From a virus (lineage: Duplodnaviria; Heunggongvirae; Uroviricota; Caudoviricetes): DNA of 15,650 nt. Where the stretch lies: IMG/VR virus record IMGVR_UViG_2703718817_000011; one strand, written 5' to 3'. The position numbers and the translations under genes are program-made. The notes below the pieces were generated by a model. The model saw only the letters and a list, made by a program, of their open reading frames with translations, made no database searches and was not told where the DNA came from. Every line of letters starts with the position of its first letter. Position 1 is the stretch's first letter. Positions 1 to 9,155 of this stretch are shown in pieces.

Positions 1-165
1 ATGGCAAAGCCGATCATCACGCTCAATGGCCTAAAAATCGTCATTATGTTGGGAATGCTGGTCATTATTCTCTGCGGTATCCGTTTTGCCGCCGAGATCA
101 TCGTGCCGTTTATTCTCGCATTATTTATTGCTGTTATATATAACTTATCCCGCATAGTGCATTGA
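1..165 (+). pseudogene. tqsA: Truncated 5' fragment of AI-2 exporter gene tqsA (ydgG), interrupted by the inserted element
   Basis: ORF at nt 1 translates [46 protein letters not shown], which matches the TqsA N-terminus from memory; it then diverges (YNLSRIVH) and stops at 163-165 instead of continuing about 340 codons. Confidence 0.55.
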
Positions 166-210
166 TTTAATTAAGCAATTTTCACTGAGAAAGTGCCAAA
201 ATTCGCAAAA

Positions 211-234
211 TGACTACACCAGTGACTACACCGT
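211..234. repeat. Tandem direct repeat, 2 x TGACTACACC on a 12-bp period, about 70 bp inside the left junction
   Basis: tgactacaccag / tgactacaccgt at 211-222 and 223-234, read directly. Confidence 0.5.
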
Positions 235-620
235 TCGGTGCACTGTATGAAACAACGTGGAACAAATAGGCACAAGAAATATAAAGGCGGGTAATTTTAA
301 GGAGGCGTTGCTGTCGATATGGGGATCCCCATAACGGGGCTACCGGATTTTTTTTCCGGTTAACCTTTAATCAGCCAGGTGGGTTTTACATACCCTTGAT
401 CACCGTAATGATGATCCAGATGTGCACCTTTTCCACCAATGGCGGAAAAGCTCCAACCGTAACGATGATCGCTATGGTTGCCTCGATGGTCTGCGTGGTC
501 ATTATGACCATTCAGCCAGTGACCTTAATCAGAATTTTTCGCTAAAAAATGACGTTGGCCACGTCATCCGGAAAGCACAAAATCACGTCGATTTTTAATG
601 AACGGTTAAACCGTCTTTTT

Positions 621-660
621 GTCACGGTGTGTCACTGGTTGTCACTCTCCGTCACGATTG
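621..660. repeat. Four helically phased decamers each beginning GTCAC
   Basis: gtcacggtgt gtcactggtt gtcactctcc gtcacgattg with an exact 10-bp period, read directly. Confidence 0.55.
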
Positions 661-769
661 AGGTGGTGCTCATTCTGCCCGACCGCGCATTTTTGCGCTA
701 TCGGGAATATAAAACAGTTACCGCCGTCAGCTACCCAGCTCAGAATTGAGCCGCCTTTTAATCAACAAG

Positions 770-1051
770 TTACCGCCGTAACCGCTCCGGCTTCTTCCAG
801 TGATACGTGATTTTCTCCTTCTCCCGATACAGTTCAACGCGGCGATTGTAGGCCAGCATTTCCAGAACGCGGATCCGTATGTCGCGCATATCCGCATCAT
901 TAAGCTGGATACCATCACGGCGCATCACCTCAGCAACAACACGCGCATAATTTTCGGCTGTCACGCTGTCCGGCTGCGTGGTCTGTTCGTCAGCCTGCTG
1001 GCTGATTCCAGAGACGCGGCGGATTAATCGCAGTATTTCGGCTTCTGTCAT
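770..1051 (-). CDS. Hypothetical protein (93 aa), last gene of the packaging operon
   Basis: ATG at 1051 preceded by a GAGGT SD; starts 14 nt after the terL stop; no recognisable family. Confidence 0.5.
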   Translation of the reverse strand: MTEAEILRLIRRVSGISQQADEQTTQPDSVTAENYARVVAEVMRRDGIQLNDADMRDIRIRVLEMLAYNRRVELYREKEKITYHWKKPERLRR

Positions 1052-1064
1052 GCTGCTGACCTCA

Positions 1065-2726
1065 TTACACCCCGCTAAATTCTTCCAGTTTCTGGCGGTG
1101 GCTGTCGCTTATATCAAAAGCAAAATCCTCATGCTCTGCCTGGAATGTACCAAACGCCATCAGCGCCGCTACGCTCGGGTCTATCTTGTTCGGTGATTTT
1201 TTCTTGTTCGGCTTGATATTGGCGTTCGCGTCACTCTGCATCACGACGTTACTCATCGACCAGGACAACACCGGATCGCCACGATGCACAATCACCCTGC
1301 GGTTAACAAAAACTTCGAACGATTTCGCCGCCGGACTGAATCTGAGGTAGGTTTGCGGGAACGGCTCCACCTCAAAACCAGCCCCCTGTAATTGCGTCCT
1401 GAGATGCGTGGCGTTCCACGTATCAAAGCCCACCAGCCTGATATTAAATTTCTCCGCATCCTGCATGATGTCATCTCTGATCCGGTCGTAATCAATGCAG
1501 TCACCTGGCGTTGTGCGTATCCAGCCCGCTTTAGCCCACTGGCGATAGACAGCGCGGTTTTTATTGGCGGGGTTCTGTAGCTGGAACTCCGGCAGATAAT
1601 GACGGGAAACCAGCATGATATTTTTACCGACCGGAAAGGCATAGCACACGCTGGAAATATCGCTGGTTGATGATAAGTCCAGCCCCGCGTAACACTCCTG
1701 CCCGTGTAAATCTTCCTCCGTGAACGTTCCGGCACACTCAGCCCATGCGCCGTTACCCATCCACGGGGTAGCCCCCTGGCACCAGATATTAAATCGCTTT
1801 GTCATCATCTCCACCCATTGCGACGGAATACCCCGCGCTTTCTGGATGGTTGAGGCCAGTTTTTCACGATCCACGGAAACATCGATGTTAGGGTTAGCCT
1901 TTATCCACATCGCCGGATCATCAACCTCGTTTTCGTCGTCCAGCTCGTAAATCAGCACAAAAATTGAATCGTTGACCTCTTCGCCGTCCAGGATCTGGCA
2001 GCAATAATCATAGTGCTGTTTACAGGTTGAAACGACGTTACTGCCCGATGTGGTAATGGCAAATAACAGCCCTTCGGGACGTGCGCCCATCCCCAGCTCA
2101 AGCGCGGAATAAACGCCGTTATCGGGGTGTAGGTGGTATTCGTCCACGATGGAAAGGCTGGGGTTTGTTCCCTCGATGGTTGCCGCTTTTGCTGCCAGCG
2201 GCTTTAACAGGCTGTTGCTTTTCGGGTGCATCACCTTGTGGGCCTGAATATTCACCCGCCTGCGTAACGGTCGGGATAAAAGGCACATCTGACGCGCATC
2301 ATCAAAAACGATCCGCGCCTGGTCACGGCTCACCGCTGCGGTGTAAATATCCTGCTGCCCGTTCTCCATAATCAGAAACCAGTTAGCCAGAATCGCGGCG
2401 GTCGTGGATTTCGCATTTTTGCGCGGCACTTCGATAAAGGCGCTCGTGTATTTGCGCCGTCCGGTGGCCTTAACCTTAAAGCCGAGGATGCACGCAAAGG
2501 CGAACTGCTGCCACGGCTCCAGCTCAATGGGTCTGCCACGCATCGGCCCTTTTACGTGCGGGCACACCCTGGAAAAGGCAATAAACCGCTCCACAACCTC
2601 ACGATCGAACGTGTAAAGGGGGCTTTCAAGGTCCGAAAAGTACCGTTTAACGGCCTGTTTCAGCCGTTTACAGGCCGGAATTTTGCCCGTTTTTACGTCT
2701 TCTGCGTACTTATTCCAGGCGGTCAA
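1065..2726 (-). CDS. terL: Terminase large subunit (HK97-type)
   Basis: 553-aa ORF with an N-terminal ATPase Walker A-like segment (VPRKNAKSTTAA) and a C-terminal nuclease-like region; apparent TTG start at 2726 with an AGAGGA SD, overlapping the terS 3' end. Confidence 0.88.
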   Translation of the reverse strand: MTAWNKYAEDVKTGKIPACKRLKQAVKRYFSDLESPLYTFDREVVERFIAFSRVCPHVKGPMRGRPIELEPWQQFAFACILGFKVKATGRRKYTSAFIEVPRKNAKSTTAAILANWFLIMENGQQDIYTAAVSRDQARIVFDDARQMCLLSRPLRRRVNIQAHKVMHPKSNSLLKPLAAKAATIEGTNPSLSIVDEYHLHPDNGVYSALELGMGARPEGLLFAITTSGSNVVSTCKQHYDYCCQILDGEEVNDSIFVLIYELDDENEVDDPAMWIKANPNIDVSVDREKLASTIQKARGIPSQWVEMMTKRFNIWCQGATPWMGNGAWAECAGTFTEEDLHGQECYAGLDLSSTSDISSVCYAFPVGKNIMLVSRHYLPEFQLQNPANKNRAVYRQWAKAGWIRTTPGDCIDYDRIRDDIMQDAEKFNIRLVGFDTWNATHLRTQLQGAGFEVEPFPQTYLRFSPAAKSFEVFVNRRVIVHRGDPVLSWSMSNVVMQSDANANIKPNKKKSPNKIDPSVAALMAFGTFQAEHEDFAFDISDSHRQKLEEFSGV

Positions 2727-3066
2727 GCTCGTCCTCTTCTTCTGTTTCCGGTGGATTTTTACGGCGGCTTATCGGGTCAAAACCGAGCAAAGAGGCCATT
2801 TTTATCATCACTCTTTCAGCGTCGGATTTTGCGCTTAATGCGGGGTTTCTGCTCTCGCCGCCCTGACTGTTAACAATGCTGAACCCGCGCGCCGCAAGGT
2901 CTGCAACGGCTTTCCGGTAAATGGAGTAGTTGACACAATACAGTTCCAGATTGCTCCAGTCGGCGGGGGTCAGGTCTCCCCGTTCCGCAAGCTGCCTAGA
3001 TTTTTCCCGCCACTGCTTCACGGCGATATCATCCAGGTAGGCGGGGGCTTTCGGTGGTCTTGCCAT
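2710..3066 (-). CDS. terS: Terminase small subunit (P27 family-like)
   Basis: 118-aa ORF directly upstream of and overlapping terL; sequence resembles P27-family small terminase subunits (recollection). Confidence 0.75.
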   Translation of the reverse strand: MARPPKAPAYLDDIAVKQWREKSRQLAERGDLTPADWSNLELYCVNYSIYRKAVADLAARGFSIVNSQGGESRNPALSAKSDAERVMIKMASLLGFDPISRRKNPPETEEEDELDRLE

Positions 3067-3188
3067 GCTTATTTTTCGCCAGATTATTTTTCAAAAAATT
3101 CCCGTGCATAAAAATTTGAGGAGGCGTTCGGTGCCCGGCGGGGTCGGGTTGGTCCTGAAAACGCCCCCCACCCCGTCATACAGCCTCA

Positions 3189-3371
3189 TCAGCGATTGCG
3201 GAAACATTCCATAACCTCGCGGTCACGGTCGGTTAATCGCTTCGCTGTGATGCGTTCTGCGCGTCCTGACGCTTTATCTTTATGCCCTGTTTCCTGTGTC
3301 TTCCATGCGTCACGCTGCCTTATAAGTCCACGGATAAGGCGGTTTTGCTCCCGCTCATTCATCAGCGTCAT
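3189..3371 (-). CDS. Hypothetical small basic protein (about 60 aa) between HNH and terS
   Basis: Internal ATG at 3371 (or 3362) of track ORF 3189..3593, overlapping the HNH stop; highly charged sequence; weak SD. Confidence 0.3.
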   Translation of the reverse strand: MTLMNEREQNRLIRGLIRQRDAWKTQETGHKDKASGRAERITAKRLTDRDREVMECFRNR

Positions 3372-8950: not shown

Positions 8951-9155
8951 TCCCCACCTATACCCACTTTTACTCCCCACTTTTCACAATTCCCCATCTC
9001 GTTAAAGGCGTGGGATTTGTAATTTTTATCATGCTGTTTCATAAGGATTTTTTTGCTCCCCACTTTTTGGGATGTATACAGGTCAAAAAGTGGGGGATTG
9101 TGTTTAAATTTTGTTAAATTCCCCATACCCACCACTTTTGCCACCCACTTTTTAC
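8951..9155. repeat. Putative replication origin: CCCCACTTTT-type iterons flanking an AT-rich segment
   Basis: At least six copies of CCACTTTT in both orientations (about 8965, 8977, 9060, 9084 inverted, 9133, 9146) around an AT-rich stretch at 9011-9056, immediately 3' of the replication gene. Confidence 0.5.

Follow-up and report, generated by a model that had tools for sequence, protein, structure and literature searches.

The origin iterons of phages are direct repeats, four to five in number, that share a conserved core, have variable spacers and recur once per helical turn; those of lambda ori lie inside the gene for the O initiator. Iteron control loci such as P1 incA titrate or handcuff initiators, and the SGI1 island reportedly interferes with the replicon of its IncC plasmid helper. 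Phased repeats are also typical of TerS recognition sites, and the lambda integrase arm-type sites P'1–P'3 (arm consensus C/AAGTCACTAT) are tandem decamers. The GTCAC array described here shares unit number, conserved core, variable spacers and helical period with the phage origin iterons. It differs from them in lying neither inside nor beside an initiator gene, its neighbours being TerL and a gene for a 93-aa protein. Moreover, the satellites that carry it encode no such initiator, their A/T-rich stretch is on the opposite side, and the similarity ends at the pentamers.

The array and the element that carries it

The stretch of DNA analysed (the window) comprises 15,650 nucleotides. Positions 621–660 read GTCACGGTGT GTCACTGGTT GTCACTCTCC GTCACGATTG, with pentamers starting at 621, 631, 641 and 651, in agreement with the original prediction of four GTCAC decamers at exact 10-bp spacing in non-coding DNA. 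The inverted repeat ATGACGT-N5-ACGTCAT (549–567) and the 12-bp direct repeat AGTTACCGCCGT (716–727 and 768–779), which had been described alongside it, are likewise present. The location assigned to the array, downstream of the packaging operon, was also correct: the minus-strand genes for HNH, TerS, TerL and the 93-aa protein precede it, and it begins 110 bp past the stop codon of the last. For most relatives, no gene is annotated in this region in RefSeq. The features at this end of the element are the following.

543–570, minus strand: predicted intrinsic terminator of the packaging operon (inverted repeat 549–567, then a U-run)
602–620, plus strand: conserved left border ACCGTC-T(4–7), directly adjoining the array in every variant
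621–660, plus strand: GTCAC array, four pentamers at exactly 10-bp spacing (four to five units in relatives)
678–779, plus strand: two 'hairpin modules' that separate the array from the stop codon of the 93-aa gene, found by sequence inspection
770–1051, minus strand: hypothetical gene for the 93-aa protein (PHROG 1561), last in the operon and the usual, non-obligatory neighbour of the array

The number of GTCAC sites in the whole window is unremarkable (27; 25 ± 5 expected). The array is the sole 5-mer repeated four times at a period of 9–11 within the window, 5-mer arrays of this kind appeared in none of 3000 first-order Markov shuffles of the window, and the analytic chance expectation is about 4e-5 by our own arithmetic. 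The array is a non-chance feature.

Window positions 1–144 are the 5' end of tqsA, broken by the integrated element. The element carries minus-strand genes for a P4-type integrase, an AAA_25 Rep protein, SSB and PerC, followed by an HK97-type capsid, prohead protease, portal, head completion and connector proteins, HNH, P27-family TerS, TerL and the 93-aa protein. Gene content identifies it as a capsid-forming PICI (cf-PICI), an E. coli phage satellite, inserted in tqsA, and the gene order is that published for the cf-PICIs of Proteobacteria. With the prototype EcCIEDL933 the HNH-TerS-TerL block shares 96% identity; 534 of 5426 complete E. coli genomes contain it.

Candidate Rep iterons, TTTT(A/G)C(T/C)(C/A)CCCACTTTT, occur three times at 83–85 bp spacing at 8968–9152, directly 3' of rep. 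Since the origins of PICIs consist of iterons flanking an A/T-rich region immediately 3' of rep (PMC6092414), these repeats are likely to be the replication origin of the satellite. There is no GTCAC array at this rep-side position, and the array at 621–660 was accordingly rejected as the satellite's own origin.

Between tqsA and the array, positions 361–545 are identical across five aligned relatives at the tqsA and phoQ sites and about 82% identical in O157 satellites. This segment contains two small hydrophobic ORFs, of 41 aa (minus strand, 386–511) and 49 aa (plus strand, 396–545), and a palindrome, GGTCATTATGACC, at 499–511; it could be a small membrane peptide, a toxin-like gene or a regulatory site.

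Conservation, distribution and surroundings of the array

Among 13 haplotypes of the array, none of the 20 pentamer positions varies, as against 8–9 of the 20 spacer positions (Fisher p ≈ 0.003, own arithmetic). Copy number ranges from four to five and changes by whole 10-bp units, of which at least four are always kept (e.g. L138, L315); the single exception to whole-unit changes is a one-base spacer deletion in L008. The core ACCGTC-T(4–7)-[GTCAC-N5]4–5 persists while both flanks are exchanged. We read the conservation of the pentamers together with the whole-unit indels as the signature of selection on phased, short protein-contact sites.

The array was found in 232 of 5426 E. coli genomes and in three types of satellite, namely cf-PICIs, PICIs with a ClpP-capsid fusion and a DUF1441 protein, and satellites with capsid and decoration genes. 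It occupies nine or more insertion sites (tqsA, phoQ, clpS, yifB, yejO, rclA, yrbL and thiM, and also a position beside a truncated lambdoid terminase gene). Between tqsA- and phoQ-inserted elements the region 330–790 is about 99% identical, and the 200 bp next to att are much more divergent.

We consider it quite unlikely that the array is functionless, that is, a fossil piece of a phage origin, or a repeat made by strand slippage, carried along in a region prone to recombination. Its optional presence in a highly mosaic region, where recombination has swapped the flanks, is what such a fossil would show. Perfectly conserved pentamers amid varying spacers, and in-phase unit indels that never leave fewer than four units, are difficult to reconcile with it. 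The same holds for retention through many flank exchanges and spread over 232 genomes, and no remnant of an initiator gene was seen around the array.

Absence from related elements, which the original prediction had named as evidence against itself, was indeed found. Of the 54 IMG/VR satellites with the 93-aa gene and sequence downstream of it, the array is present in 19 and missing from 35. EcCIEDL933 has no array in the 860 bp between the 93-aa gene and phoQ, and this element has been induced, packaged and transferred experimentally, as published. Hence, the array is dispensable for excision, replication and packaging in this family. From these comparisons it is best described as a non-coding cassette, conserved but optional, of the variable accessory region at the 3' end of the satellites. 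When the array and its flanking sequence were compared by BLAST with 50,697 phage records, there was nothing meaningful as a donor phage and no similarity beyond the pentamers.

In one array-bearing satellite with capsid and decoration genes (L008 1707–3050; NZ_CP123335.1) the element directly adjoins a lambdoid terminase gpA gene that lacks its 5' end; W and the portal gene come next. This satellite appears to have entered a prophage terminase gene by insertion, or to have recombined with one.

The left border is, in the window, the 3' half of a hairpin, ACGGT-TAA-ACCGT followed by T5, that was detected in a terminator scan (fold −4.4 kcal/mol). This suggests a terminator-like element on the plus strand, and the A-run and T-run would also suit a bidirectional terminator. 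L283 and L295 lack the array, with a clean break immediately after the ACCGTC-Tn border. On the minus strand, the stem-loop at 543–570 (−10.1 kcal/mol; z = −2.0) is followed by UUUUUU; its inverted repeat lies 54 bp further along that strand. With the operon terminator in this position, the array would form the extreme 3' end of the operon transcript, between convergent terminators. The RNA of the array folds no better than shuffled sequences (z −1.2 and −0.8), so that an RNA structure is unsupported for this region, and an Rfam search of window positions 1–3300 gave no family at E ≤ 1.

The 110 bp between the 93-aa gene and the array are made up of the two hairpin modules. Each consists of a palindrome (GCGCATTTTTGCGC at 685–698; GCTCAGAATTGAGC at 738–751), about 17 A/T-rich nucleotides and then GTTACCGCCG (717–726; 769–778), so that the 12-bp direct repeat mentioned above is the conserved right end of the modules. 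Relatives have two to eight modules, each with a different palindrome, and the module ends across the window, L405 1455–1925 and the downstream regions of L244–L323 read GTTACCGC(G/C)C or GGTTAGGC. Modules are lacking in L007 and L008, where the array directly adjoins the gene. Relative to window position 713/714, L001 and L002 carry a 183-bp insertion of extra modules bounded by the duplicated sequence GCGCA(A/T)TTTTGCG(C/T)TATCGGGAATAT(A/C)AAACAGTTACCGC, which indicates that this part of the satellite can grow and shrink.

Two of the EcCIEDL933 modules match two divergent alleles of phage genes for roi/Rha-type DNA-binding proteins (31/35 identity with HK620 roi; 41/49 with a gene of an Stx1 phage). 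Both matches fall at one codon position (nt 123–171) of these genes, with alignment scores of 27 and 29 against 11 ± 1.4 for shuffled sequences. The window's own two modules scored 9–10 against both alleles, no better than shuffled. The sense strand of the modules is antisense to the satellite operon, and the modules could be decoy sites, antisense RNA or silent cassettes. Judged by these alignments, the 3' ends of relatives gather short segments whose phage counterparts belong to DNA-binding-protein genes.

Satellite proteins, integrase and terminase as candidate binders

A protein of the satellite itself (the 93-aa product, AlpA, PerC or the Ash-like regulator) might bind the array at the operon end and act as a roadblock, terminator aid or DNA organiser. 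In nearly every case the array follows the 3' end of the 93-aa gene at 9–300 bp, immediately before a terminator, and the satellites encode several uncharacterised small proteins and regulators. We nevertheless regard a satellite-encoded binder as unlikely. The 93-aa gene occurs without the array at 35 of the 54 loci, and in L134 perC and another gene stand between the two. Furthermore, none of the protein clusters within 10 kb is distributed like the array (18 array-positive against 32 array-negative elements), which points to a factor supplied in trans; the top covariation match in this association test was discarded as an overlapping-frame artefact.

The 93-aa family is narrow (37 representative clusters), and a scan of genome contigs with the protein gave two loci. 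It has no sequence match in Pfam, NCBIfam or PDB. The AlphaFold model consists of three helices at moderate confidence (pLDDT 71), and Foldseek returned nothing for it at E ≤ 0.001 and no match to a DNA-binding fold. With no domain or structural match, and with a gene that is often present where the array is not, the 93-aa protein was rejected as the binder. MatP was also rejected: its site matS is GTGACNNNGTCAC, of which a half-site is identical to the pentamer sequence, but the array has no palindromic arrangement.

GTCAC had originally been interpreted as the core of lambda-type integrase arm sites. The resident Int has a P4-type arm-binding domain, and TGACTACACC is present twice on both att arms (window 211–232; 1203–1226 of L324, upstream of int, the same element in strain 00-3076). 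These repeats lie 70–130 bp from the tqsA junction, with the core at about 130–145 of the window (GCTGTTAT). Their consensus across relatives is TRACTACACC, with ACTACACC as the conserved part, and they are likely to be the arm-type sites of the P4-type integrase. In the array, ACTACACC is absent. Since the resident Int has its own repeats on both arms, and the array stands about 480–700 bp from the att core on one side only, the arm-site claim is disfavoured.

It is very unlikely that the array provides arm-type or RDF sites for a tyrosine recombinase, be it the satellite's own integrase or the lambda-type Int/Xis system of a helper phage. With P'1–P'3 of lambda the array shares tandem decamers, a GTCA(C) core, the 10-bp spacing and a place near the end of the integrated element, and we take its GTCAC(T) core to match the lambda arm sites. 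Arrays adjoin integrase genes in L099, L100 and L101, and the int-distal location resembles that of Xis sites in attR. However, unlike the lambda sites the array is far from the core, one-sided and independent of the att site, with a P4-type Int that already has two TRACTACACC repeats on both arms. The distance to the core is variable, and in some relatives genes intervene. The array accompanies many att sites, including that of L008, where the stretch 2600–3100 has no TRACTACACC repeats, and it is missing from the phoQ-site elements L404 and L405, which have the same arm repeats (L405 with the same att and int).

The second protein originally proposed was TerS. The array would then be a pac- or cosB-like recognition site for the element's own P27-type terminase or that of a helper. 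The phasing of the repeats and their place at the end of the packaging operon would suit TerS, and L016 has a GTCAC array upstream of HNH-TerS, as L107 has at its terS-terL junction. Lambda cosB (R1–R3) and PICI cos1/cos2 resemble the array in being short repeats for an oligomeric DNA-binding protein, the latter in the same satellite family. We find this role very doubtful, and the claim did not hold up for this element. The array occurs with three different packaging modules, and EcCIEDL933, with its 96% identical HNH-TerS-TerL, is packaged without it, so that the array is dispensable there. Published PICI cos1/cos2 sites (EcCICFT073), which are read by Rpp-TerS, contain the lambda cosN sequence GGGCGGCGACCT and no GTCAC array (PMC6739421, PMC6092414), whereas the vicinity of the array has no match to GGGCGGCGACCT within 3 mismatches.

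The array is also 2.4 kb from the start of terS. The HNH-terS intergenic region (3067–3190, minus strand) contains a G-run, GACGGGGTGGGGGGCG, and CCCGCCGGGC, about 60–120 bp upstream of terS. The HK97 genome ends have a G9 run and CCGCCGCCAAA 50 bp before terS, with a CCGCC motif. By analogy with HK97, the cos of the cf-PICI is most likely situated at 3067–3190. A lambda-like cosN at 665–715, considered because of the resemblance of CGACCGCGCATTTTTGCGCTAT, was rejected, as GGGCGGCGACCT is not found there within 3 mismatches and the published cos1/cos2 differ; the resemblance is due to one of the hairpin modules.

Of the original prediction of a protein-recognition array, the helical phasing in non-coding DNA therefore stands, and both candidate proteins, integrase and TerS, though reasonable in view of the GTCAC arrays beside integrases and terminases in other phages, are disfavoured for this element. 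A helically phased recognition array is upheld by pentamers that are invariant, spacers that are variable and indels that comprise whole units.

GTCAC arrays in other viruses and a proposed ligand supplied in trans

IMG/VR was scanned for the exact pattern GTCAC-N5 ×4, with the pentamers GACTC and CCTGA, of the same composition, as controls. The pattern was found at no fewer than 120 loci (62 families among the matches listed), as compared with 45 loci for GACTC and 61 for CCTGA. Families with variable spacers numbered at least 33 for GTCAC among the matches listed, against 5 and 4 for the controls; such arrays are at least 7-fold commoner in viral contigs than those of the control pentamers.

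In 43 of the 62 families among the matches listed, the array is sense-oriented inside an ORF of at least 140 aa, usually 35–55% along it. For the array-bearing ORFs 25 PHROG families were listed, seven of them unnamed. The named ones are nearly all replication functions, mostly replication initiation (O-like) but also DnaD-like and DnaC-like helicase loaders and primosomal proteins. By analogy, GTCAC arrays inside initiator ORFs represent the lambda arrangement, in which the origin is embedded in the initiator gene. Coliphage Tritos, which encodes CI, Cro, Rha and a replication protein, has two GTCAC arrays within its replication gene, the first of four units and the second of five (L406). They are located at 1635–1670, in the part for the N-terminal domain, and at 1895–1940, mid-gene and beside an A-rich repeat. 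The first Tritos array is of a type, 'F1', that is very common in enterobacterial prophages (31 IMG/VR loci among the matches listed).

A minority of GTCAC arrays adjoin integrases (L099, L100, L101) or terminases (L016, L107, L014), and the pentamer alone therefore does not name a protein class. A group of high-GC phages (L014, L048, L082 and related) has a GTCAC(CGTTT/TGAAT) array of 4 to >8 copies upstream of the portal gene and downstream of an ORF without identified product. A literature search on GTCAC together with iterons or excisionase found nothing relevant.

In view of these parallels, we tentatively interpret the array as a set of iteron-type docking sites whose ligand, a protein supplied in trans, may be the O-like initiator of a helper phage. 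The four to five pentamers, on one face of the helix, would be read cooperatively by several copies of a DNA-binding protein, with the replication initiator of a lambdoid phage, co-resident or helper, as the candidate ligand. Once bound, the initiator would be either titrated, and the phage thereby interfered with, or recruited to the satellite. A helper initiator is the likeliest ligand because no partner is identifiable in the satellite and because the architecture is like that of phage origin iterons, and within this class an O-like initiator is favoured by base rate and host range. With the GTCAC-class origin iterons of Tritos and more than 40 IMG/VR families among the matches listed, the array has the pentamer, the unit number and the host in common. 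In a phmmer comparison at E ≤ 1, no ORF of the window matched any of the 43 initiator ORFs that bear an array. A point against an O-like initiator is the base after GTCAC, which is T in 4 of the 13 distinct units here (31%) as compared with 7% of initiator iterons.

The T-rich stretch of the window (596–620) lies 5' of the GTCAC strand, whereas the A-rich stretch of Tritos lies 3'. This opposite-side flank makes a working origin doubtful and favours simple binding, by titration or recruitment. Such a docking array would share with the P1 incA and SGI1-IncC type of locus initiator-binding repeats away from the origin and a role in binding rather than initiation. It would differ from P1 incA, which binds the initiator of its own element, in that the presumed ligand comes from another element.

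A broader possibility, which we regard as rather improbable, is that the variable 3' end as a whole is a 'landing pad', in which decoy cis-sites copied from the genes of helper phages are assembled (the GTCAC array and the roi/Rha-like modules). It would titrate, sense or recruit helper proteins, or the modules would act as antisense RNA in the 3'UTR of the operon. The roi/Rha-like modules in relatives make it more plausible that the GTCAC array belongs to a collection of helper cis-sites.

The non-coding 3' ends of cf-PICIs and other E. coli PICIs were previously undescribed, although these elements have been studied intensively. Without their context, phased GTCAC arrays cannot be taken for cos, pac or att sites; the one described here is an iteron-type array in a new setting. 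As a conserved yet optional docking array, it would represent a new kind of accessory 'cargo', consisting of binding sites and not of genes. If it binds a helper protein, it would offer a directly testable mechanism of helper specificity or interference. If the landing-pad reading is true, the 3' ends would add a DNA- or RNA-based, protein-free layer to the interference between satellites and their helpers.
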